Origin: a virus
Lineage: Duplodnaviria > Caudoviricetes
DNA: 53,070 bases
IMG/VR virus record: IMGVR_UViG_3300020034_000020
Span: 1 to 53,070 of that record
Reading direction: 5' to 3' (one strand)
Shown: positions 4,122 to 19,753 of the stretch, piece by piece
Layout of the letters: each line of letters starts with the position of its first letter
How positions within the stretch are numbered: position 1 is the stretch's first letter
Translations under genes and position numbers: made by a program
The notes under the pieces: generated by a model
The model's database searches: none
What the model was told of the DNA's origin: nothing
What the model saw: only the letters and a program-made list of their open reading frames with translations

Positions 4122-5279
4122 ATGGCCGAAGCACAGTTTACTCCCTATCTTCCTCCTGGCGGCATTGTCGACGCCGCTTTCTCCGGGGCGAGTCAAATGC
4201 AGTCCTTGATGGCGCATGGTCAGCAAATGCGCGAGAGCGCCGAGCAAGCCCAACGCGCAAAGGAGATTTACGAAGTGGGCCGCCCCGTGATGGAGGCGAA
4301 GGCGCAGGCGGATTTAGCAGTCGCACAGGGCACACTCTACAACGCGCGCCAAGTACAACAGTTGCGTGCGCAGTTCGGGCAAGCCTCAAAAGACGCCGGA
4401 GCCGAATACCAGAAGGCCATGCAGCTCCCGACCTACGAACAGCAGGCCAATGCGCTTTCAGATGTCGCGCAGAAGTATTCCTATTTCGAACTTTTCCCTG
4501 AAGGTAAGGCGTTCATGGATACAATCCAAAACAAGGGACTTCAGCAGACCCATTACGGGATTTTAGATACCCAGAATCGCGCCGCCCTCGCCCGGGAACA
4601 ACAGCGCTTCGAGGACGAGACAGCCCTCACGATTACCAAGGGTGACGAAGCCCGCAAGACCAACGCCGCTTACGGCAAGGGTGAGAGCAAAAACGAGAAG
4701 GACATGCGTTTAGTTCAATCCCTCCGCGACCAGGGACGCACCGATGACGCCAACGCTTTAGTTAATGGGTTGAAGGGCGGAAGAGGTGGAAAGCCCAGTG
4801 CCGACATCCAGCTCGTGGACCGCATTGCCGAGGAGACTCGTAACCCAAATGGGGACCCCGAGGTTCTTGCGCTACTCAAGGCCCGATTGCGCAAAAGTGC
4901 TCAGTGGGCGCCCCACCTGGCAGAGTTCGAGGCGAATCAAAATGAGGTCGAAAAGGCGACGGCTGAAGGGAATATCCCTCGGGCTGATGCCTTCGAAGCC
5001 CGCAACCGAGCCCTCGCTTTCAAGGCCGAACTTCCCGACACGTATCCCACGCGCGACAAGCCCGAAGAGAAAAAAACCACCATACTCGAAGATGTGCTTG
5101 GCGGCGTGAAGAAAATCAAAGCGGCGTTTAGCTCTGACCCGATTCCCGCGCCGAGTCCTCCAGCCGCGCCCGCGAACACGAAAACCGTGAAGATCGAAGG
5201 CAAAGACTATCCCGTTTACACGGACGCCAAGGGCAACCGCGCCTATCACAAAGACGGGAAGTATTACCCGATTCCCTGA
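4122..5279 (+). CDS. Internal virion (ejection) protein 2
   Basis: Helical, Q/A/E/K-rich; position between ejection proteins 1 and 3. Confidence 0.65.
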   Translation: MAEAQFTPYLPPGGIVDAAFSGASQMQSLMAHGQQMRESAEQAQRAKEIYEVGRPVMEAKAQADLAVAQGTLYNARQVQQLRAQFGQASKDAGAEYQKAMQLPTYEQQANALSDVAQKYSYFELFPEGKAFMDTIQNKGLQQTHYGILDTQNRAALAREQQRFEDETALTITKGDEARKTNAAYGKGESKNEKDMRLVQSLRDQGRTDDANALVNGLKGGRGGKPSADIQLVDRIAEETRNPNGDPEVLALLKARLRKSAQWAPHLAEFEANQNEVEKATAEGNIPRADAFEARNRALAFKAELPDTYPTRDKPEEKKTTILEDVLGGVKKIKAAFSSDPIPAPSPPAAPANTKTVKIEGKDYPVYTDAKGNRAYHKDGKYYPIP

Positions 5280-8200
5280 TGCCTTTCGACGCCTCAACCG
5301 CCACGTTGGAGGCCGAGCCTCAGGTGGCAGGCTTCGATCCTTCGACCGCAAAACCAGATACGTCCCAGGCTCAGGCCTTCGACCCTAAGACGGCCGCGCC
5401 GCTTAAAGAGGACGTTCCGGATACGGTTATCCGTTCCGCTCCATCGGAGGACGACCCGCTTAACCCGATGGGGGCGGGGCTGCGCGCAATTCGTAAAGCG
5501 CTTTCACCCCTTATCGGCAAAACCGAAGAAGAGCAATTGGTCGCGGGGGCCGAAAGACAGCGTCTCGAAAAACAGTTTCCACAAATCGCGCGTCACGCCG
5601 AGGAGACCGGCGGAAGCGAAATTGAGAAGAAGGGTTTTCTCGGCGGCGTGATGACCAATAAGAGCCCGTGGGCTTTGGCGGTGAACGATGGCGAGGCGGT
5701 CCGCGAAAAAGGAAACCCACTCGCCGAGGTACTCCTTGCGCCAAAAGAAAAAGATGACCCGACGTCGCTTAAGATCGCGAAGGCGCTCTACACCCCCATT
5801 GCGCATACGCTCAACGCGCTTTCTTCGCCGGCAGGCCTGGGCACGGCTGCGATTGGTGCGGGTGCCGAGGCGATCGCGGGCGCCAAATCAGGCCTCGCGG
5901 CCGTCGCTCCGGATTTTATTGGCGCGACTAAGTTGGGCGGTGAATCGGCCCCACTCCTTAAACAGGTTGAGGGCGCGGTTGCTGGGGTTTTCGCCTCGGA
6001 CATGGCGAGCGGGCTGGCGAGCAGTTTGCCGGGCGCCTATGCCAAATGGACCAACCCGGACGTTGACGCCCAGGAAAAAATCCAGGCCGGAGTGGAAATC
6101 ACCCTAAACGCAGCGATGGCCGGACTCGCGGGGGTTGGAGCCTATCGAGGATTAAAGCCCGCTGACGTGGCGGGAATGCGACCCACCGAGGCCGTGAAAG
6201 CGCTCGCTGAAACCTCGGGTAAAACCGTCGAGGAGGTTGCGACGGATGCGCATAAAAACTTTGAGGAGCTCATCGGCCCGAAACAGCCCGAGGAAAAGCA
6301 ATCGGAGTTCAATTTCGACCCCGGCACGGCCCTGCCGGATACGTCGTCGCCGGACGTCATGGCGCCGCCATCTTTCAAGTACGCCATTTGGCCCAAGGAA
6401 TATGGTGTAGCCCGCAGAGTCGACGTGACGCGCTACACTCCGGGTGAACAGCGTATTTCTGAGTCTCGTCTCCTAGAGGACTGGCAGAAGGAGCATCCCG
6501 ATTTGCCTATCCCTCACGAAGACCATCCGGAGGGCAATTTCACAGACGAGCAAGTCCGTGGTTTCGAACCGCGCGAAAAGGAAATCCTCGCCGAACAAGA
6601 CGCCGAATTTACTCCCGTTGGGCTAGGCGCCGCAACGCGCGAGGAGATGACGCCCAAGCCAAGTGTTACCGGCATTAAGAATGCCGACATTGACGCCGAC
6701 CGCGTGAGCCGGGGTCTACCCCCCTTGATGGACACGGCCCGCCGAGGCTGGGGTAAGGTCTGGGAGCAGGCCATGCAACGGATCGACGATTTCGCGAGCC
6801 GGGGCGAAGACGCCGCCAATGAGATTATTGCAAGCCAACTCGACAAGCCTTCGAATATTTCGGACGTCGAGCAGGCGATTCTCCTTCATCGACGGATCGA
6901 CCTAAAAAACCAATACGAGAAGGTCGCCGCGCGGCTGATCGAGGGACACGAAATTGGCAGCGAGGTAACTCTTGCCTCGGACCGTTTGCGAATCGCTCAA
7001 CTCGAAGACCAGCTCCAAGACCTCGAACAGGCCAACAAGGTTGGCGGTGCGGAGTCAGGCCGTGGACTCGCTGCCCGAAAGATGATGGCGCGGGAAGATT
7101 TTTCGCTCGTGAATATGCGGCTGCGAAGGCGTGCCAATAAAGGCGGGGCGCCTCTGACTGAGGCGGAGGGCGCGGAGGTTGAGGCGGCCCACAAGAAAAT
7201 CGTCAAGGCCCAGGAGGAACTCGACCTCCACGCCAAAGGCGGAACGGACACCGAGAGCGACGCGGCGGCAGACGAGGCCGTCGATCAAATTAAGAAGGAC
7301 GTGGGAAGTGAACCCGCCGAGAAAGCGAAGGATTTCGACCTCGATAAAGAGCGCGACCGGGCAATCGACAATATCAGAAAGCGAGTCGAGGACGACGCAT
7401 CGCCCGAGGACCTCACGGCCTTCATTCGCAAGCTCGCGGAGAATTTTGTCCGCCGTGGCGTCAATGAACGTAGTGCTTTAGTGGATGCAGTCCACGGCGT
7501 GATTAAAGATATCATTCCAGAGATGACGCCGCGCCAAGTCATGGATGCGATTTCTGGTTACGGCGATTTCAAGCCTCTCGACCAAGACGCGGTGAAGGTT
7601 CAGCTTCGCGACCTCAAGGGCCAAATGCAACAGGTCGCCAAGTTGGAGGACATGCAGAAGGGTCAAGCGCCGTCGAAAACCGGCGTGGAACGTCGCACCC
7701 CGAGCGACGAAGAGCGCCGCCTCATTAAGGAAGTAAACGAGATGAAGCGCAAAGGCGGCTTCAACGTCACGGACCCAGCGAAGCAATTAAAGAGCGCCCT
7801 GGACGGGATCAAAACTCGGCTCACAAATCAGATTGCGGACCTGACCCACCAAATCGAAACGCGCACGCGTATCGTTAAAACAAAAACGGCGGTGGCGCTC
7901 GATGCGGCGGCCGAAGCGCTCACAAAGCAACGCGACGCCCTAAAGGAGCAGTTCGATCAGATTTTCCAAAAGCCGGAGCTGACAGACGCGCAACGACTCG
8001 CCCTGGCCGAGAAAACGGCGGACCGTCAAATCACGGAGCTCGAAAGGCAGCTCCGAAACCGCGAGGTGTTTCCATCCGCGAAAACGCCGGAACTGGAAAG
8101 TGCGGCCCTCGAAGCGAAACGTGCCCGCATCGAAGCACTGAAAGAGGAACGAGAGAATATCCGCGATAGCATCCAGCCTGGGCGTCTCAACGAAGGGCGG

Positions 8201-9760
8201 CTCGGGGCATTGAAGTCGCGCCTGACAAATCGCATCGCCGAACTCCAGGAGCGTCTTGCTAATTCCGATTTCGGACCGCGCCCAAAACGCACGCCAATTG
8301 AAATGGACGCCGAAGCGGAACGGCTCCAAGCGGCGGCGACTCGCGCGAAACAGGAATTCGAAACAGCGCTCCTTAAAGACCGCTTAGCGAATCGTCCGAT
8401 GCTGCAAAAGATGAAGGATACCTTCGTCAAATGGCAGCGCGGTTTCCTTCTCTCTGGGCCAATCACGCTCTTTAAACTCACGGCCGCCGCCGGGGTCCGG
8501 ATGGCTTCGAGTGCGGCAGAGGAAGGGGTTGGCGGGGTGATTTCCAAGGCACTCCCGTCAGTGGCTGAACAGGCACCGCGCGAAGGCGGCCTCAGCCTGA
8601 AGGCCGAAGCGAAAGCTATTTCCTCAGCCCTCACCCAGGGCATGCGAGACGCGGCGCAAACGCTCAAAACCGGGAGGAGCGACCTCGATGTGAATTATGG
8701 GAAAGGCAAAGACGGCGCCGTTCGGGAAAGCGATGTTTTGCCGCGCTCGATGATCGACTTTTTTGGTGCTCTCCATGGCGCCCTCAAAGCCCCGGTGAAG
8801 CGCGCGGAATTTGAGCGTTCACTACAAAAGCGCATCGAGAGCTATCTAAAGAATAACGCCGATCTCACCGACCCGGCGGTCCAGGTAAAGGCCATGCTGG
8901 AGACCTTTAAGCAGGAGGCTTATAAAGACGCCTCTCGCTCGATTTTCCTCCAAGACAATGTCCTCGTTGACATGGTCAATAGCTTCATTGGGCGCGGCGA
9001 ACAACCGCTTAAAGCCACCGGCAAACCGAGCCCCGGAGGGACGGTGGCGGCAGGTGTAGCGCGCGGGCTGTTCCCGATTGTCCGCGTGCCGCTGAATATC
9101 GTTGCGGAGACCGTCCAGTATGCGACGGGGCTTTATACTGGCTCGGGGCGGCTTGGCCTGGCGTTCCGCCGCGGGATCGAAAACCTCTCTCCGGAACAAG
9201 CTGACTTGATAATGCGGGACCTAAAGAAGGGCATTATAGGAACTACCGCTTTGGTTCTTGGATACGCCTATGCCGACCAGGTGGGCGGCTATTATACAGG
9301 CGAGAAACCAAAGCTCACCGCTGCGAAATTCGGCACCATTAAATTTCTCGGCTACAATATTCCGAGTTTCCTTCTTCACAGTCCTCTTTTGGAAGCCGCC
9401 CAAATCGGTGCGACCATTCGCCACGTTCTCGATAAGAAGATTCGCGGAGCGGATCAAAGTCTGGGCTCTGCCGTCTGGATGTCTGCGCTCGGTCTCGCGG
9501 ACGAAACGCCCTTTGGACACAGTGCTTCGACGGTTGCACGGCTCCTCGACCCACGGGAGACCTCGAAGGCTGGGGGTGAAATCGCGAAGTCAACCCTCGT
9601 CCCTCAACTCGTTTCAAACATCGCCGAAGGGCTAGACCGCGACGCCAAAGGTGTAATTCCGCGAAAAACCGAGGGGCCGGTGACGGCCATCGAATCCGGT
9701 ATTCCCGGGCTCCGCGAAACCCTTCCCGTCGACCAGCGCCGCGCGAACCGCCGCCAATAA
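5279..9760 (+). CDS. Large internal virion (ejection) protein 3, 1493 aa
   Basis: Size, coiled coils, hydrophobic C-terminal segments, last gene of the structural module. Confidence 0.7.
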   Translation: MPFDASTATLEAEPQVAGFDPSTAKPDTSQAQAFDPKTAAPLKEDVPDTVIRSAPSEDDPLNPMGAGLRAIRKALSPLIGKTEEEQLVAGAERQRLEKQFPQIARHAEETGGSEIEKKGFLGGVMTNKSPWALAVNDGEAVREKGNPLAEVLLAPKEKDDPTSLKIAKALYTPIAHTLNALSSPAGLGTAAIGAGAEAIAGAKSGLAAVAPDFIGATKLGGESAPLLKQVEGAVAGVFASDMASGLASSLPGAYAKWTNPDVDAQEKIQAGVEITLNAAMAGLAGVGAYRGLKPADVAGMRPTEAVKALAETSGKTVEEVATDAHKNFEELIGPKQPEEKQSEFNFDPGTALPDTSSPDVMAPPSFKYAIWPKEYGVARRVDVTRYTPGEQRISESRLLEDWQKEHPDLPIPHEDHPEGNFTDEQVRGFEPREKEILAEQDAEFTPVGLGAATREEMTPKPSVTGIKNADIDADRVSRGLPPLMDTARRGWGKVWEQAMQRIDDFASRGEDAANEIIASQLDKPSNISDVEQAILLHRRIDLKNQYEKVAARLIEGHEIGSEVTLASDRLRIAQLEDQLQDLEQANKVGGAESGRGLAARKMMAREDFSLVNMRLRRRANKGGAPLTEAEGAEVEAAHKKIVKAQEELDLHAKGGTDTESDAAADEAVDQIKKDVGSEPAEKAKDFDLDKERDRAIDNIRKRVEDDASPEDLTAFIRKLAENFVRRGVNERSALVDAVHGVIKDIIPEMTPRQVMDAISGYGDFKPLDQDAVKVQLRDLKGQMQQVAKLEDMQKGQAPSKTGVERRTPSDEERRLIKEVNEMKRKGGFNVTDPAKQLKSALDGIKTRLTNQIADLTHQIETRTRIVKTKTAVALDAAAEALTKQRDALKEQFDQIFQKPELTDAQRLALAEKTADRQITELERQLRNREVFPSAKTPELESAALEAKRARIEALKEERENIRDSIQPGRLNEGRLGALKSRLTNRIAELQERLANSDFGPRPKRTPIEMDAEAERLQAAATRAKQEFETALLKDRLANRPMLQKMKDTFVKWQRGFLLSGPITLFKLTAAAGVRMASSAAEEGVGGVISKALPSVAEQAPREGGLSLKAEAKAISSALTQGMRDAAQTLKTGRSDLDVNYGKGKDGAVRESDVLPRSMIDFFGALHGALKAPVKRAEFERSLQKRIESYLKNNADLTDPAVQVKAMLETFKQEAYKDASRSIFLQDNVLVDMVNSFIGRGEQPLKATGKPSPGGTVAAGVARGLFPIVRVPLNIVAETVQYATGLYTGSGRLGLAFRRGIENLSPEQADLIMRDLKKGIIGTTALVLGYAYADQVGGYYTGEKPKLTAAKFGTIKFLGYNIPSFLLHSPLLEAAQIGATIRHVLDKKIRGADQSLGSAVWMSALGLADETPFGHSASTVARLLDPRETSKAGGEIAKSTLVPQLVSNIAEGLDRDAKGVIPRKTEGPVTAIESGIPGLRETLPVDQRRANRRQ

Positions 9761-9768
9761 TTTTCCTT

Positions 9769-9909
9769 ATGAGCTCAAATCAACAATCCAAACTATATTC
9801 GGGCAAAGGCAAGAAGCCTGCCGCCCTCGTTCGCAGTACCGCCAAATCCAAGGCCCTCCGTGCGAAAAACACGGACCCGATGTGTCTTATTAAGTGCAAA
9901 CAAAAATAA
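9769..9909 (+). CDS. Small basic protein, 46 aa (not in the ORF track)
   Basis: MSSNQQSKLYSGKGKKPAALVRSTAKSKALRAKNTDPMCLIKCKQK fills the gap between the flanking genes. Confidence 0.55.
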   Translation: MSSNQQSKLYSGKGKKPAALVRSTAKSKALRAKNTDPMCLIKCKQK

Positions 9910-9914
9910 CCCCT

Positions 9915-10367
9915 ATGAAAACCTTCCGCGCTATCGCCTTCTGTCTGGCCTGGAGCTTCTTTTGCTCCGCCTGTTCAACTACTCCTATTAAGATCACCCC
10001 GGAGACCGGGGCGATGCTCGTGCGGATTTCGGTCATGGCCGGGGTCGCCCCGATGCTCAGTAATAACCCGAAGTATATCCCGGCCTCCGAAGCCTTGGCG
10101 ATGGGTATCGGGGCGGCGCTTCAGCAAAACATGACCATCACGCCGGAACTGATCTCCCAGTACGTGAACCGCGTTTGCAGGGAAAAGGGCGTATCCGAAA
10201 ATGACATACCGCTCTTCGTCACCCTAGCCGAAACGATTTACGACACTTACGTTGCGACCTATAAACCAACGGTGATTAACAGCACGGACCCCAACGCCCT
10301 TCTTTATATTAACGCTTTCCGTGATGGCCTGCTTGCCGCAGCGACCATCGCCAGTACCAGAAAATGA
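9915..10367 (+). CDS. Predicted lipoprotein
   Basis: Signal peptide MKTFRAIAFCLAWSFFCSA-C with a lipobox-like Cys. Confidence 0.7.
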   Translation: MKTFRAIAFCLAWSFFCSACSTTPIKITPETGAMLVRISVMAGVAPMLSNNPKYIPASEALAMGIGAALQQNMTITPELISQYVNRVCREKGVSENDIPLFVTLAETIYDTYVATYKPTVINSTDPNALLYINAFRDGLLAAATIASTRK

Positions 10368-10663
10368 TCCTCGCCGATATCATTACCCCGAACACGAGTG
10401 TCTCGGTCACGATCGCAGCATGCTTTACCATCGTGGTTGCACTCGTGGGTGGCACCTGGCGCATTTCGGCACTCCTTAATCGCCTGGACCGCCGCTTCGA
10501 CGACCTGGAGCGCAAGACGGGCGAGTCTTGGAGTCTGGATGATATGCGGGCCTGGGTTCGTTTGATCGACAAGGCCAACGCGACCCTCGTTGTCCCGGAC
10601 CCCGACATGGTGACGCGAGATCCGGTCTACCGGAAACACGGCACGACGCCCCCTCATGGATGA
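10364..10663 (+). CDS. Small membrane protein, holin-like
   Basis: One N-terminal TM segment followed by a short charged coiled coil. Confidence 0.5.
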   Translation: MILADIITPNTSVSVTIAACFTIVVALVGGTWRISALLNRLDRRFDDLERKTGESWSLDDMRAWVRLIDKANATLVVPDPDMVTRDPVYRKHGTTPPHG

Positions 10664-11004
10664 GCATCACCCGTGAGCACCTCGCCCAAATCCTCGCTCG
10701 TAGTGGATACGCCCTCGAAGCTGAAGGTGTCTCTCTACGGGCACGGCAACGTCCGGTCATTCAAGAACACCAAGCAGATAGTCCCAGCCCGAAACGGAAA
10801 GCCGCCGTTCCTCGTAACTCATCCCGAAATCAAAAAGCAAATGGACGGGATCATCCGCGATTTGCTCTCACTCTTAATTTCCGCGTCTCAGACAATCGGC
10901 CACGAGACCTCGACGGGCTCCTCTCGACGATCCTTGATTGCCTCGTTACTGCCCGAGGACGATTCGCGGCAATGGATACCCCGAATCCTCGTGGAGTGCG
11001 CTGA
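10660..11004 (+). CDS. RusA-like ORF A (central catalytic RDLD segment)
   Basis: RFALTLNFRVSDNRPRDLDGLLSTILDCLV resembles RusA (RRRDLDN..K...DAL). ATGA-coupled to the upstream gene. Confidence 0.6.
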   Translation: MSITREHLAQILARSGYALEAEGVSLRARQRPVIQEHQADSPSPKRKAAVPRNSSRNQKANGRDHPRFALTLNFRVSDNRPRDLDGLLSTILDCLVTARGRFAAMDTPNPRGVR

Positions 11005-11053
11005 GGTCGCGCCTGGCGAGGAGGGCGTCGATCTTACGATTGAGCGGCTCTAA
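10673..11053 (+). CDS. RusA-like ORF B (N- and C-terminal RusA segments), overlapping ORF A
   Basis: GNVRSFKNTKQIV at the N-terminus and LPEDDSRQWI...GEEGVDLTIERL at the C-terminus. Confidence 0.65.
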   Translation: MSTSPKSSLVVDTPSKLKVSLYGHGNVRSFKNTKQIVPARNGKPPFLVTHPEIKKQMDGIIRDLLSLLISASQTIGHETSTGSSRRSLIASLLPEDDSRQWIPRILVECAEVAPGEEGVDLTIERL

Positions 11054-11361
11054 AGCTTCGGCATGGGCATCAATTTAACCGGTTTCCCAGGCTCAAACAC
11101 AAAGGACTTGGTCTCCGAGAAGACGTATAAGGTTCTAGCGTCCCAACGGTCGCTCAACTCCTGGTAAACGGTCAGCATCCAATTTAGATATTCCGTTTGA
11201 ATCGCCTTCACGAAGGCGCGATCAATCTCCGCGTCCGTGTTCCATTTAAGGATAGGTCGCGTGAAGCCCGGCTCTTTCGAGTCAGGAACGCGAAACTCGC
11301 AAGAAACGCCGTTCGCAAACGTTTTTTGGAAGAATAGCATTTTGGGTTCGTCGGTATTCAT
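11050..11361 (-). CDS. Hypothetical protein
   Basis: Last gene of the leftward operon; ATG 11361 chosen to avoid overlap with dnaB. Confidence 0.6.
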   Translation of the reverse strand: MNTDEPKMLFFQKTFANGVSCEFRVPDSKEPGFTRPILKWNTDAEIDRAFVKAIQTEYLNWMLTVYQELSDRWDARTLYVFSETKSFVFEPGKPVKLMPMPKL

Positions 11362-11375
11362 GTAAAGGGATCGGT

Positions 11376-12704
11376 TCAGCGATTTATGGGCCGCGCGCCG
11401 AGTTCGAATCTTGCGCACTCCCTGCGAAAATACACTGAGCTAAAGGTCGTGCCGACATTGCGCCCCTTTTCCTGGAAAATATCTTGGAAGAACCGCGGTT
11501 GCTCACTGACATCCTCATGGGGTTTTTGCGTCATTTTCGTGATCGGGTCTTGGTCCGGCCGATGCAGCATAAGGACCCGGTCGGCATGGGCCTCGATGTC
11601 GCCAGAGTCTTTTAGGTCGATGAGTTTTGGCTCGCGATTCCCGTCTCTCATTTGGTCGCGGTTAAGCTGAACGCCAAGGAAGACGACACATCCCAGCTCC
11701 GTCGCGAGACGCTTGAAAGCCGCGGTCACCATTCCGGTATTTGAGGCCTTCGTGCCAAACCGCGATTGCTCGCAATCCCTAATTAGCCCGAGGTAGTCGA
11801 TTGCAATTGCATCAAGAAAGCCGGTTTCGTGAACACGCTGGCTCGCCGATAGGATAGGATCGAGCGAGGTGAGGTTATCTATGACCGTGATGGGTAGGGC
11901 GCGAAGGCCCCGCAGCGCCAAATGAAACTCCTTTTGGTCTCTGGGGTGTAGGTCCTTTAGCTTCGCCCAGGAATGCCCGCAGACCGCGGCTGCCATTAAG
12001 TTTGCAATGTCGCCTTGCGGAACCTCCAAGGAGATCATCAGCGTATTCAAATCTCGCGTCGCGGCGTGGTGGAGGAACTGCCGCATGAGAGACGATTTCC
12101 CAAGTGAGGGACTTCCCGCAACGATGCAGAGCTCACCCCGCCGAAAGTTTCCGTGTCGCTCACCCAGAGAAGGCCAGGGCCATTCAATCGTGCGAATTTC
12201 CTCGGGCTCTTCTTTCGCTATAATAGCATCAACCTTTTGCGCCTCGACTGTGATTGACTGCTGCCAGGTGAGAGGCGGTCGCGGGTCTGCGCTGAGGTCT
12301 GCCGCCTTGAGTTGAGCCAATGCCTTTTGCGCCGTCTCGTCGTCTTTACTATTCACGGCCTCCGAAAATTTCAGCGCGTTGAGCTGGGTGATGCGCTGCT
12401 GGTTTAAGCGCTTCAGCTCGTAGCACAGAGGCCTTAGCTCGCAGGAAATCATTCCTGGGTTCTCGCGGGTGACGCGCACATAATCCTCCGGTGACATATG
12501 CCCTTTTTCGAAAATCACCTCTCTCAGATACGAAACGAAGAGAAACCTTCTCGTCTTCAGGGTTTCGTGCGCTAGCTCGAAATATGCCCGGCAAGCCGAA
12601 TCGGTGAAGTGCTCGCCTGTGACACCAAGCTCGGCAATAACCTTCATTGCCTCCACTTCGCCGTAATGGATAAAAGCCGTTATGCGTTCTTCGAGAGCGT
12701 TCAT
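11376..12704 (-). CDS. dnaB: DnaB-like replicative helicase
   Basis: Walker A GSPSLGKS, IDYLGLI, QLNRD, DLKDSGDIEAHADRVLMLHR. Confidence 0.95.
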   Translation of the reverse strand: MNALEERITAFIHYGEVEAMKVIAELGVTGEHFTDSACRAYFELAHETLKTRRFLFVSYLREVIFEKGHMSPEDYVRVTRENPGMISCELRPLCYELKRLNQQRITQLNALKFSEAVNSKDDETAQKALAQLKAADLSADPRPPLTWQQSITVEAQKVDAIIAKEEPEEIRTIEWPWPSLGERHGNFRRGELCIVAGSPSLGKSSLMRQFLHHAATRDLNTLMISLEVPQGDIANLMAAAVCGHSWAKLKDLHPRDQKEFHLALRGLRALPITVIDNLTSLDPILSASQRVHETGFLDAIAIDYLGLIRDCEQSRFGTKASNTGMVTAAFKRLATELGCVVFLGVQLNRDQMRDGNREPKLIDLKDSGDIEAHADRVLMLHRPDQDPITKMTQKPHEDVSEQPRFFQDIFQEKGRNVGTTFSSVYFRRECARFELGARPINR

Positions 12705-16256: not shown

Positions 16257-16271
16257 AACACCCTATCCCCT
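16257..16271. repeat. 15-bp element AACACCCTATCCCCT, copy 1
   Basis: Identical copy at 26811-26825; both lie upstream of leftward operons. Confidence 0.8.
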
Positions 16272-16393
16272 TGGGAGCCAATATGACCATTCCCGCTGTC
16301 TGTTTAACACGCCCGCTGAAAATACTTTCAGAGGAGCTTTTTTCGCCCATCGGCTTTGCGTCGGTTTTTGCCGGACCCCCCTCGAGTCACCCC

Positions 16394-16593
16394 TTGTGCC
16401 GCCAAAGCCTGGCACGGAGCGGCACATGGAACTGGTTTACCAGGGAAGGGTGGGCGCTCCTAGAGTCCATTCTTTTCCCTGCTACAGAGGTAAATCCCTC
16501 TGTAGCTTTGTGCCAAAAAGTGCTAAAAAAGGACAGAAATGAGCACTAAACCGGCACAGGATCTTGGAGGCAGTGGCACGGACATGGCACAGA
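16394..16593. other. Candidate attP: GGCAC(A/G) arm-type repeats around a 10-bp inverted repeat
   Basis: GGCAC(A/G) at 16411, 16421, 16553, 16575, 16586; inverted TTGTGCC at 16394 and 16508; GCTACAGAGG/CCTCTGTAGC at 16481-16506. Confidence 0.55.
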
Positions 16594-17801
16594 GCGAAAG
16601 CAAGGCGACCATCGCACTTCGAAAAAAACTCCCTCGCGGAATAAGGATCGGGACCTGGGGGGGCACCGCGCACCAAGCAAAGCCTTACTTCGTCCGTTAT
16701 GGCCCCCAGCGGACCGTCCAATCCTTCGAGGTCGAGTCGACCCGCAATAAGTTCGCCGAGGACCTGACGCTCCAGGCGAAACAGTTAGGCTCACCCTCCC
16801 TTGGAGTGAACCATACCGAGATTAAGGAATGGTTGCTTATTAAAGCCCAGACGGGCGCGACGGCGGCCGAGCTCTTGGAGGCATGGCAGAAGCATAAGAG
16901 CCGGATGAACCTGACTCTGACGGTCTCCGAGGCGGTCGGGAAGTATCTCGCCCTCCGGCGAAACGAGGACATTGCGGAAAAGTCCACCACCTACCGGCAA
17001 ATGAAACGCCACCTTGTGGATTTCCTCGTGGCGACCCACGGCGAGCGGCTACTCATCGACGTCACCGCAGAAGACTTGCGGACGCTCCTCACTACGGTGA
17101 TGGACCGGGACGGCGAAAAACCGGCCGCCGCCGTCACCAAAAAGAGCTACCGAAAGAACTGGATGACGTTCTTCAATCGAGCCTGTGCCGAAAAATGGCT
17201 CGAAGTTAATCCCTGTGCCGAAGTTGTGCCCCCTAAGGTACACGCCAAGGAGAAGGAGCTCTTCTCGATCGAGAAGGTGTTCCACTTCCTCCAGGCCAAT
17301 ATTAACGAGCCGGTCTTGCCCCGCGTGGCCCTGGAAATGTGGGGCTTTATGCGGGCCTCCAGTGCCGCCCGAATCCTCGAGGAGCATGTCAACTTTGAGG
17401 AAAAGGGCCTGAAAATGCCCGGCAAGCAGCATAAGGGCGGCAAGTGGAAATTTCGTCAGGGGCATGCCGAGGTGCTTTGGGATTGGCTTGCCTTGGCAAC
17501 CGAGGAAACTTGGGCTCTCGACGAAAAGATGTACGCCGTTCGCAAAGCTCAGGCCTTTATCCGCGCGGGCTTTAAGCTCAAAAAACGGGCGTTCCACAAC
17601 ATCCTACGCCACTCCTGCATTAGCTATCACCTCGCAGCGCTCAAAGAAATGTCTCGTACCAGCTACCTGGCCCAACACTCCAGCCTAACCATGACTGAGG
17701 AATACGAGGGGGTTGCCACCGAAAAGGACGGCAAGCTCTGGGCAAAACTAACTCCGAAGGCCGTTTCAAACGGCTCGTTTGAACAGTTCATCACCTCATG
17801 A
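16539..17801 (+). CDS. int: Tyrosine recombinase (integrase)
   Basis: Catalytic R (MRASS), HxxxR (HNILRHS), H (AQHSS) and Y (EEYEG); WLEVNP. The true start may be ATG 16584. Confidence 0.9.
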   Translation: MSTKPAQDLGGSGTDMAQSESKATIALRKKLPRGIRIGTWGGTAHQAKPYFVRYGPQRTVQSFEVESTRNKFAEDLTLQAKQLGSPSLGVNHTEIKEWLLIKAQTGATAAELLEAWQKHKSRMNLTLTVSEAVGKYLALRRNEDIAEKSTTYRQMKRHLVDFLVATHGERLLIDVTAEDLRTLLTTVMDRDGEKPAAAVTKKSYRKNWMTFFNRACAEKWLEVNPCAEVVPPKVHAKEKELFSIEKVFHFLQANINEPVLPRVALEMWGFMRASSAARILEEHVNFEEKGLKMPGKQHKGGKWKFRQGHAEVLWDWLALATEETWALDEKMYAVRKAQAFIRAGFKLKKRAFHNILRHSCISYHLAALKEMSRTSYLAQHSSLTMTEEYEGVATEKDGKLWAKLTPKAVSNGSFEQFITS

Positions 17802-18205
17802 ATGAAATCACCTACCAAAAAACACTCGAAGAAACCCTAAGGGAGATCGCGGAACTCGAAGCGCGACTCGAGCGGCTCAAAAGAACCGCGAAGGCTCTCC
17901 GAGAACTGACGAAATGGCCCACCGGGGCGTCGCGTCTTATCCTCCCGCCGGACCTAAAGATAACTGGCAAACGGGCGCCAAAATACTTCATGGAGGACAC
18001 CCTCCTTAAGAAGATATTCAAGGACGGGCTTTGGCTCTCCAACGCGAACGTTCGCGAGGCGTTGAGGGAGATGGATTACCCGTTCCTTATCGACAATCAC
18101 CAGCTCCGCAAAACCCTCTCCCGCCTGCGAGTCGCCGGGCAGCTCCAGGTCAAACACGAGCGAGGGTATGCGTTTTTCTCACTACCCCCCAAGAAAAAGA
18201 ATTGA
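17798..18205 (+). CDS. Coiled-coil plus winged-helix protein
   Basis: N-terminal coiled coil; LRKTLSRL..AGQLQV wHTH-like C-terminus; coupled to int. Confidence 0.65.
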   Translation: MNEITYQKTLEETLREIAELEARLERLKRTAKALRELTKWPTGASRLILPPDLKITGKRAPKYFMEDTLLKKIFKDGLWLSNANVREALREMDYPFLIDNHQLRKTLSRLRVAGQLQVKHERGYAFFSLPPKKKN

Positions 18206-18211
18206 CCCCAC

Positions 18212-18229
18212 CCAAGGGTATACCCTTGG
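18212..18229. promoter_or_regulatory. 18-bp palindrome CCAAGGGTATACCCTTGG
   Basis: Perfect palindrome upstream of the non-coding region; TTGACC just 5' of it. Confidence 0.75.
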
Positions 18230-18300
18230 CTTGGCTTGCTTCCGTGAGTAAGACGAGCAAGCTGAGCACACTTTTGAGGGGGTCTGCCCTTCGCCTTTGT

Positions 18301-18339
18301 ACCCGGTTTCCCTGCTTACTCCAGGGAGCCGGGTTTTTT
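18301..18339 (+). terminator. Intrinsic terminator-like hairpin
   Basis: ACCCGGTTTCCCTG / CAGGGAGCCGGGT stem followed by a T run. Confidence 0.65.
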
Positions 18340-19125
18340 CACGCCCGGATAACAGGTGAAAGATCCTGCCCCCGAGGCCTTGGCTTTCGCGGGAGAGTTT
18401 AGAACGGTGTCCGCGCTGTCGAACAGCAGGGCGGCACTGATGAGCATCGGCGTTGAAGGAAACGCATCTCTCCTACTTGTAGGTGCCCAAGCGAACGGAA
18501 CCTATCAGTGCCTCGGTCAACGAACCGACGCTGAACGACAACGACGACATTGGCGCCAGGCTAGAGGCCGAGCCACCGCAAGTGAAAACTCGGAGCCGGA
18601 ATCAAGCCCGGCATGCTCTTCAGTGCTGCCCGTAGGGCGGCACTGATGGACGAGAAATACCTCAAAGGTTAGGCGCTGCGGATTCTTGATGATAACGGAC
18701 TACGGTTGGAAATCCTGCCCCGTCGCTGAGACCTGGGTGCTAAAGTTTCGCGCAATCCTATAGGCCGAGATTGCCGTCCATCAGTGCTTCCCAACTCCAA
18801 GCGGGCTGAAATCTGTCTGGCCGCAAGGCCGTGAGGACCGTAGCAAGCTTTTGGTTTTCTAGCTTAACCAGCAGAGCGCTGGGGAGGCCTCCATAAAACG
18901 AGCTCCAGAGATCCGGGTTCAAGTCCCGGGGAAACCGCAAAGCACCCCCTGAAACGTGGACACGCCGTGAGGGTCTGAGCTACGGTCAAAAAGTATACCG
19001 GAAACCTCGCCTCTCTGTTATGCAAAGTTTCTTGATGCCCTCACCCGTTACTGGGTGAGGAGTACCCGTTTGCCTACATCTGTCAGCAAAGTATTCATGA
19101 AGACAGGCGCTCGTTGGCGCCGGAA
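18340..19125 (+). ncRNA. Candidate large structured ncRNA
   Basis: No credible ORF. Long-range stems 18429-47/18613-31, 18635-52/18775-92 and 18836-44/18979-87; GCAA and CUUG tetraloop hairpins; embedded tRNA-like domain. Boundaries are approximate. Confidence 0.65.
18853..18937 (+). tRNA. tRNA-like element with an enlarged anticodon loop and no CCA
   Basis: Acceptor GGTTTTC/GGAAACC, D stem GCTT/GAGC, T arm CCGGG-TTCAAGT-CCCGG; anticodon stem CTGGGG/CTCCAG closes an 18-nt loop. Confidence 0.7.
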
Positions 19126-19351
19126 AGACGATCGCTCAACAGTTAATCTATGACCCTCCAAACCAACCCCGTTAAAGAGTATCGCATTTGGTGCACTACC
19201 GACGAGTGCCTAAGCAATCGCGATTCGTTGTGCTTCCGGAGTCATGGTCTTAAATTAATCCAGGCGCCTCGCAGGTTTCCACCGAAACGCGGGACCACTA
19301 CGCAAGGCGCCCGAACCCGTATTCGAATGGTGGGCACACTTAGTGTATTTC

Positions 19352-19753
19352 CTACACTGTCAAGCCAGGGAGCTTAATGAGAGCGTCCTCGCAACCCGGT
19401 TCTTTACTGGGCCTGTAACCGCGTTTTTCGATGAGGTGGCGCCAGAGCCCCGTGTTCCAAATGCTCCCGACGACCATAGGGAGGCCTGCTTGATGCGCAG
19501 TCTCTTCCAGAATAGTCATGAGCAAAGGAAACTGCCCGTTTCCAGGTGTGTCGTTACAAATCGCAACTACCGTCAGGGCTTTGATTGTAGGGCTAAAACA
19601 GAGAATGCCGTGTAACGTCACGAACCGATATCTCAGGATTTCGGGGTCGAGTTCCCCGATTGTGGGCTGGGCGAGGATCTCCGTTTGCCACGGCGAAAGA
19701 CGAAGCCCGTTCTTCATTAAAGCCGCTCGTAGATCAATGGGGAAGCGGATCAT
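19352..19753 (-). CDS. GNAT-fold acetyltransferase-like protein
   Basis: VVAICNDTPGNGQF (motif A-like) and N..L..HL..KRGY; ATG 19753 coupled to the upstream stop. Confidence 0.55.
   Translation of the reverse strand: MIRFPIDLRAALMKNGLRLSPWQTEILAQPTIGELDPEILRYRFVTLHGILCFSPTIKALTVVAICNDTPGNGQFPLLMTILEETAHQAGLPMVVGSIWNTGLWRHLIEKRGYRPSKEPGCEDALIKLPGLTV

Follow-up and report, generated by a model that had tools for sequence, protein, structure and literature searches.

What does an ∼0.8-kb interval without an evident protein gene contribute to a phage genome? The question is raised by positions 18340–19125 of IMG/VR record IMGVR_UViG_3300020034_000020, the complete record of an uncultured virus (53,070 bases, analysed in full and hereafter the window), where the element described below fills the longest gene-free gap of its region. 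The original prediction, made from the sequence alone, proposed a large structured non-coding RNA in which two copies of one helix arm and their complements (an A-A′-A-A′ order) could switch between mutually exclusive folds. Our analysis favours, on balance, a different reading, namely that ∼18359–19078 is this phage's copy of a modular structured non-coding RNA element of the + strand, which most likely belongs to a small uncatalogued family of soil phages whose P3 and P6 arms are hypervariable and differ wholly between phages.

A conserved two-junction frame in five soil phages

A repeat scan recovered the predicted 15-mer at both 18428 and 18634, together with a first arm pair of 19 nucleotides (nt) at 18429–18447/18613–18631 (89% complementary) and a second of 21 nt at 18632–18652/18775–18795 (86% complementary). 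The alternative hairpin (18620–18631/18635–18646), the partial complement (18504–18512) and the pairing of the third domain (18836–18844/18979–18987) are present as well. In dinucleotide-preserving shuffles of 18340–19125, neither an exact direct repeat of at least 15 nt (0/300, maximum 14) nor an inverted repeat with at least 17 of 19 matches (0/300, maximum 16) was ever reached; the repeats, the inverted repeats and the tRNA-like fold exceed chance. Two other details of the original prediction held in part. ATCCTGCCCC does occur in two copies, but the tRNA 3′-end character ascribed to the second is not supported; and the region, said to have no credible open reading frame (ORF), does contain one of 96 amino acids (aa) at 18356–18646, which is without Pfam or PHROG match and is not conserved, because the arm lengths differ among homologues by non-multiples of three and the frames are short and unrelated (those from the in-frame ATG within the repeat being judged by eye).

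By exact-pattern scans of IMG/VR with the conserved arm sequences, four other contigs carrying the element were found, all from uncultured soil phages: L063/G001, L124/G002, L123/G003 and L025/G004, hereafter given by their G numbers. Blocks A, B and C are 88–98% identical between the window and the homologues. All four blocks, A to D, stand in the same order in G001 and G002, with sequence and spacing near-identical to the window, and block D is the final part that these two have in common with it. In G003 and G004, which are close relatives of each other with ∼60 kb aligned, the element is represented by block A plus the opening 24 nt of block B. Outside the element blocks, G001, G002 and G003 have no nucleotide similarity to the window; for G004 there is one more stretch of 107 nt (73%) elsewhere in the genome. 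The five carriers have GC contents of 50–57%, and there is no protein family that occurs in every one of them. No homologue of the window's integrase was found in the other four, and none of the four matched Pfam Phage_integrase (0/4), a weak test in that the model misses the window's own integrase too.

The 15-mer used as a search key gave at least 114 matches in IMG/VR, nearly all of them single chance matches, and two contigs with slightly longer nhmmer matches to it (L032 and L073) were discarded, as they hold unrelated sequence and no 3′ arm. The window's element had no match in GenBank phages or PLSDB plasmids, and those of L123 and L124 had none in GenBank phages. Against Escherichia coli K-12, a crude proxy for universal RNAs, block A gave just an 18-nt chance-level match (E = 0.49) and 18775–19080 gave nothing. 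Literature searches by term found no paper describing this RNA family, which is not proof of unpublished status.

The conserved blocks form a predicted frame: a pair of three-way junctions, both bearing an arm that is hypervariable and closed by a stem. Junction 1 is made up of the 6-bp closing helix P1, the small hairpin P2 and the long helix P3, and junction 2 of helix P5, the variable arm P6 and hairpin P7; the two are joined by a conserved linker with the GNRA hairpin P4, the stem of which is identical in the window, G002 (both with loop GCAA) and G001 (GAAA). The first 16 pairs of P3 are nearly invariant in their irregularities as well, with a C-U mismatch in five of six instances, a G-U pair in 6/6 and a mismatched U in 4/6, and on one strand the sequence is the same at 16/16 positions in all six. 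The inner continuation of P3 differs yet stays complementary, with six different sequences in the six instances: GAGCAT/ATGCTC and GGACG/CGTCC in the window, GAGAAACGG/CCGTTTCTC in G001, GAGCGGA/TCCGCTC in G002, GAGCGT/ACGCTC in G003 and GAGCGA/TCGCTC in G004.

In a helix test over these six instances and 28 pairs, the main helix was kept in 6/6, and 91.7% of the pair cells were standard versus 32–60% with slid partner columns. Five pairs change on both sides, and the covariation score of 0.169, versus 0.077 in shuffles, was reached by 0/500 of the latter. The comparison of homologues for which the original prediction had asked gave this outcome: the helix is kept, and its inner end is altered on both strands with pairing intact. 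A hammerhead, C/D-box or K-turn reading of the arm's CTGATGA, weighed by eye, was dropped, the motif being Watson–Crick paired and no Rfam ribozyme or snoRNA model fitting.

Arm interiors differ wholly between phages

All four homologous phages have only one 5′ arm and one 3′ arm, and a single arm pair is also present in a 433-nt metagenome contig of a near relative (run X3). This contig runs through 18359–18427, skips exactly 206 nt from repeat to repeat, resumes with 18634–18846, then has 94 other letters where the window has its tRNA-like arm, and ends with 18950–19003. The interior of arm a, which it skips exactly, is an extra arm found in this phage only, and cannot be aligned with that of arm b (score 5 versus 6.4 ± 3.1 in shuffles). 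Tandem duplication of a 206-nt unit was rejected on this ground, only the arms being common to the two. Since the interiors are unrelated and the homologues single-armed, the window would have gained its additional arm by insertion at the conserved arm sequence, likely through unequal recombination there between two alleles. The second arm pair being absent from 4/4 homologues and from the X3 contig, the switchable A-A′-A-A′ helices are not conserved and mutually exclusive folds are not a conserved property; such pairings would be a by-product of arm insertion rather than a conserved switch. A single monolithic RNA, as originally pictured, is not supported either: G003 and G004 have junction 1 but lack junction 2, which indicates that the element is assembled from modules. 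The alternative given in the original prediction, an array processed into several small RNAs, may still hold.

Differences within the metagenome contigs lie partly in predicted pairs. The X3 contig retains the interior of arm b, with a G>A change at 18735 that turns a predicted U-G pair into U-A; among its six substitutions, three are in predicted pairs and each of them changes G-U to Watson–Crick (18735, 18788 and 18805). A contig of run X4 equals 18359–18445 with 0 differences and then passes into yet another sequence, its flanks being unlike on both sides. For runs X3, X4, X5 and X11, interpretation was confined to those portions of the stretch that contigs covered.

The arm interiors, of 95–189 nt, are mutually unrelated and highly folded; seven different ones or more are present in what is a very small sample, and each arm domain folds better than its own shuffles (z = −3.2 to −6.2). 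Even between the close relatives G003 and G004 the P3 interiors (189 and 95 nt) and the tRNA-like modules differ. Arm turnover is evidently fast. A comparison of the arms with phage genomes for guide-like matches, which the original prediction had called for, gave nothing: the interiors match nothing else in the five genomes, and a role as antisense guides was rejected on this basis.

Table 1. Coordinates of the element and of adjoining features in the window
Feature	Position	Strand	Remarks
Intrinsic terminator closing the integrase operon	18305–18340	+	Stem 18308–18328, then T run
5′ leader	18359–18403	+	Cross-phage similarity starts here; contigs of runs X3, X4 and X5 match from 18359
Block A	18404–18447	+	88–98% identical in G001–G004
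Block A: P1 5′ strand	18409–18414	+
Block A: hairpin P2	18415–18427	+
Block A: P3 5′ strand	18429–18447	+	Invariant
Arm a interior	18448–18612	+	Variable
Arm a helix, 3′ strand	18613–18631	+
Arm b helix, 5′ strand	18632–18652	+	Second 15-mer copy
Arm b interior	18653–18774	+	Variable
Block B	18775–18846	+	94–95% over 66–68 nt in G001 and G002; first 24 nt 96% in G003 and G004
Block B: arm b 3′ strand	18775–18795	+	Followed by junction strand
Block B: P1 3′ strand	18801–18806	+	Followed by linker
Block B: GNRA hairpin P4	18819–18830	+
Block B: P5 5′ strand	18836–18844	+
Variable arm P6	18847–18943	+	Predicted tRNA mimic on extended stem; tRNA model match 18853–18937
Block C	18944–18987	+	Hairpin P7 and P5 3′ strand (18979–18987); 88–91% in G001 and G002; nhmmer E-values 7e-13 to 8e-14
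Block D	19039–19078	+	Conserved hairpin 19039–19060 and tail; nhmmer E-values 7e-8 to 1e-6
Window-specific hairpins	19079–19125	+	From the minimum free energy (MFE) fold; no homologue; element membership not shown

The P6 arm as a tRNA mimic

The tRNA-like fold said to lie within the third domain was confirmed by the Rfam tRNA model RF00005, which matches the + strand there at 46 bits (cut-off 29; E = 2.6e-9; model positions 1–71). ARAGORN called no tRNA in the window. Twenty-two nt stand where the tRNA model has 9, and the anticodon loop has 18 nt in the fold; there is no CCA, the acceptor being followed by GCA and its stem prolonged by a 5-bp helix that leads into P5. Since the tRNA model is passed while the anticodon loop and the 3′ end are not those of a tRNA, the window's P6 arm is a tRNA mimic unable to decode. 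In G001 and G002, P6 is a long plain hairpin, and the mimic is thus dispensable for the family. No ordinary tRNA gene was found in the five phages, in which the tRNA model gave no more matches, and ARAGORN called none in the window or in the four homologous loci. The 46-bit match was missed by cmscan with default or broad-range filters and appeared when 131 nt were given, so a blank from broad cmscan is weak evidence.

Other tRNA-like pieces were seen in G003 and G004. G004 (L025 3502–3599, − strand) has a 98-nt module with an 8-base anticodon loop, which ARAGORN labels ‘tRNA-???’ and which scores 38.7 bits; in its place G003 (L123 ∼4600–4720, − strand) has a different insert, of which the T arm alone is recognisable (13 bits). 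The 11-bp closing stems of these two inserts differ at two pairs with complementarity kept. In the enlarged anticodon region of the window's mimic, 18883–18892 form a 10-nt palindrome, GGAGGCCTCC, which includes a CCTCC like that of the 16S rRNA 3′ end and could pair between two molecules.

Evidence for a + strand RNA

The + strand, favoured in the original prediction on its G-U pairs and tetraloops, is supported by several features. Across P1–P3, nine cells are G-U and one is A-C when read on this strand. The tRNA-model matches lie on the element's + strand, both in the window and in G004, and among hairpins closed by GNRA loops seven are on the + strand versus one on the −, three of the seven being homologous copies of one hairpin. 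The change of the P4 loop between GCAA and GAAA with its stem unaltered, and the three changes from G-U to Watson–Crick in the X3 contig, also speak for an RNA of this strand. In G003 the genes flanking the element on either side run in its direction, as do the following genes in G002.

Genomic setting and neighbouring features

To the left of the gap lies a + strand operon of a tyrosine integrase gene (16539–17801; PHROG phrog_1, E = 6.5e-13; no Pfam family at E up to 0.01) and a gene for a 135-aa protein without known family. The integrase gene ends ∼550 nt upstream of the element, and the operon terminator (Table 1) stands directly upstream of, and outside, the element; conservation in the relative L003 reaches 18354. 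On the right, the genes are on the − strand and end at 19352. The integrase itself is a divergent tyrosine recombinase of 420 aa, for which IMG/VR and the metagenome collection together yielded just two relatives, and 185,579 reference genomes none; searches via the integrase or its 135-aa neighbour recovered only the same two phage types. These relatives, L002 and L003 (recovered a second time as L118 and L120), have integrases 78–80% identical to that of the window. Their alignment with the window runs to 18284 or 18354 and resumes from 19255 or 19257, and in the gap slot they have 1.1–1.4 kb of unrelated DNA with none of the window's repeats; a gene for a DUF7694 protein sits in the L002 version of the slot.

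Several short sequences near the slot recur elsewhere. A 109-nt block at 19256–19364, just 3′ of the − strand gene ending at 19352, has 0–2 differences in contigs of runs X3, X4 and X5 (with flanks in X4 unlike on both sides) and is 97% identical in L002, where the adjoining sequence is only 73–76% identical; it had no Rfam match, and the true attP core, a small RNA and a terminator module are all candidate identities. A 46-nt piece (19158–19203) recurs in the same three runs with four differences and unrelated flanks; it opens a 75-aa + strand ORF (19150–19377) without Pfam match. The perfect palindrome AAGGGTATACCCTT occurs five times in the window (1476, 18214, 34978, 47244 and 48929), four copies being ∼10–25 nt ahead of a + strand ATG and the copy at 18214 ahead of a hairpin and the integrase-operon terminator. 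It may serve as an operator or as a hairpin acting in translation; any tie to the RNA element would be conjectural.

Further similarity among the carriers extends outside the conserved blocks. G002 shares with G003/G004 mosaic segments of ∼2.3–3 kb (77–98% identity; 7636–11607 in G002) in phages that are otherwise different, which suggests that G002 exchanges DNA with G003/G004 and may share hosts with them. A 178-nt stretch (G002 16264–16440, G003 4332–4508; 97.8% identical) consists of a stem-closed cassette directly 5′ of block A and block A itself. In G001 (L063 ∼830–1340, − strand), the non-coding island reaches ∼500 nt further upstream of the shared element and holds a piece that by eye resembles the leader of the G003/G004 island.

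Model and alternative explanations

In the model that we favour, transcription would run rightward from just past the integrase-operon terminator, starting near 18359, since cross-phage similarity begins there, and the RNA would fold into separately closed domains. The invariant frame, with the mismatch-bearing P3 base and the junctions, could be recognised by a factor common to the phages' hosts, a host origin being proposed because the phages have no protein in common; examples would be an RNase specific for double strands, or a protein that binds RNA, which might stabilise the arms or cut them out. The arms would be exchangeable cargo, displayed or excised, and the tRNA mimic might recruit or decoy tRNA-handling enzymes. 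Any particular partner deserves much less confidence than the reading as a whole. A bolder version, which we consider doubtful, would make the two-junction frame a universal display or processing scaffold for swapped small-RNA cargos including tRNA mimics, an RNA-level counterpart of integron cassettes, with arms hypervariable via diversifying selection in phage–host or phage–phage conflict and a shared host factor reading the mismatch-bearing P3 base.

If transcribed, the element would represent a new large phage RNA family with an unusual mode of evolution, in which a near-invariant frame is kept and arms are replaced wholesale, a pattern suggestive of exchangeable cargo on top of a host interaction that is conserved. 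Its alignable core could be used for a covariance model to mine soil metagenomes. Some pieces of soil-phage RNA islands would then be inserts in a shared scaffold and not free-standing cassettes, and the tRNA mimic, occurring as it does in phages that have no ordinary tRNA gene, might make contact with tRNA-handling or tRNA-targeting host systems.

A number of observations weigh against this model. The sample is small, with five genomes from four lineages, and the frame is 94–98% identical among them, so that almost no independent compensatory change is visible; where P3 changes on both sides, at its inner end, the new pairs may have come along with each swapped arm rather than by independent mutation. 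An invariant helix sequence fits a DNA or protein recognition site equally well. Within the 3′ arm, one base (18781) is missing from the X3 contig. No RNA runs with the stretch were found, a sigma-70-like promoter was seen on the sense strand of none of the four loci scanned, and G002 has a terminator-like site on the − strand just past the element's 5′ end. The region's fold energy beats shuffles on both strands alike (z = −2.93 and −2.91) and hence is uninformative as to strand. Recognition by a host factor is purely inferential.

Four other explanations were weighed. It is conceivable, though rather improbable, that the locus is a chain of independent small RNA cassettes in which each stem-closed piece is its own processed RNA, with no joint frame or function. 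Each domain is indeed closed by its own stem, junction 1 stands without junction 2 but beside other modules in G003 and G004, and the cassette within the 178-nt stretch is common to G002 and G003 only; yet in the window, G001 and G002, which are unrelated, junction 1 is followed in the same order by the linker, P4, junction 2 and block D, and the variable pieces are nested in conserved helices, not strung between them. We consider it unlikely that the element acts as DNA, with the inverted repeats serving as recognition, recombination or hairpin-extrusion sites for a host protein and the interiors swapped as DNA cassettes, much as in integron attC sites, invertible segments or single-strand initiation hairpins. 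No recombinase or other protein is common to the five carriers, the 9-to-1 excess of G-U over A-C on one strand, the tRNA-model hits, the GNRA loops and the conserved junction sequences point to RNA, and contigs of four runs, though contigs drop rare variants, showed two skipping joints and no strand-changing joint. What such a DNA element would account for is an arm sequence invariant on one strand, which is commoner for binding sites than for RNA helices, breakpoints at the arms (X3 skips exactly from repeat to repeat, and X4 similarity stops just past arm 1) and interiors that are replaced even within a pair of close relatives.

We judge very unlikely the principal claim of the original prediction, that of a single large RNA with duplicated helices serving as a conformational switch: the alternative pairings do exist in this sequence, but the second arm pair is missing from every homologue and from the X3 contig, the MFE fold takes nested pairs, and the two interiors are unrelated, as insertion or unequal recombination would give. 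Scarcely credible is an attP of the adjacent integrase, with the repeats as arm-type sites and the tRNA-like piece as a copy of the host tRNA target. The proximity of a tyrosine integrase gene and the repeats in both orientations beside a tRNA-like sequence recommend such a site; against it, the phages with 78–80% identical integrases have unrelated DNA in the slot, which rules out the repeats as arm-type sites for the window's integrase, and the repeats occur in four phages without a homologue of it. In addition, the exact T-loop-plus-acceptor 22-mer had 0 matches in the genomes of 185,579 species and the exact 24-mer had 0 in viral contigs, and the tRNA-like piece, which is of full length, is situated beyond the repeat cluster. 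The attP explanation was rejected on the slot content of L002 and L003, the carriers without this integrase and the absent 22-mer.

Comparison with known systems

As the original prediction had left for checking, the locus was compared with Rfam by cmscan, and no family fits except tRNA for one arm: the whole window gave 0 matches at gathering score, and the four homologous loci gave none at E up to 1. GOLLD and ROOL were absent at E up to 10 (18000–19500) and at E up to 5 (18340–18850 and 18930–19400), and since the element fails their covariance models, it is a member of neither family. The same source collection, IMG/VR, has yielded 8,495 predicted candidate structured RNAs averaging 67 nt, which reportedly include tRNA-like candidates and cis-regulatory leaders (PMC10690425); the element differs from this set in the small average size of those candidates. 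GOLLD and ROOL are large ornate RNAs of phages and prophages, and the likeness to them lies in a length of 0.5–0.8 kb, occurrence in phage, many separately closed domains and tRNA-like sequence nearby; the differences, besides the lack of a covariance-model match, are the near-invariant frame with wholesale arm swapping and an element known from uncultured soil phages only.

The P6 arm resembles RF00005 in its acceptor, D and T arms and differs from it in the 18-nt anticodon loop, the lack of CCA and the prolonged acceptor stem. Mimics of tRNA within longer RNAs include mascRNA at the MALAT1 end and the tRNA-like domain of bacterial YrlA Y RNAs, and the P6 arm likewise sits within a longer RNA, as predicted here; the mascRNA model itself gave a weak cmscan match (17.6 bits versus a cut-off of 42.5 bits). 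Integron attC sites and invertible segments have imperfect inverted repeats with fixed mismatched bases around a variable centre. The element is like them in that mismatch-bearing inverted repeats flank a variable centre and breakpoints fall at the repeats, but it differs in having no shared recombinase, interiors of 95–189 nt that are highly folded, and strand-specific G-U, tRNA and GNRA features.

The tRNA region of phage T4 encodes the small stable RNAs RNAC and RNAD (species 1 and 2). Here, too, non-coding stem-closed modules lie in a phage intergenic island, are exchanged among relatives and include tRNA-like members, and modules occur independently in different phages, as in RNA-cassette islands, with junction 1 alone in G003 and G004. 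The five phages of this study differ from T4 in having no ordinary tRNA gene, and above all in that the variable pieces are nested in a multi-junction frame, in the same order in three unrelated phages. What is new here is the insertion of variable pieces into a multi-junction frame common to several phages.

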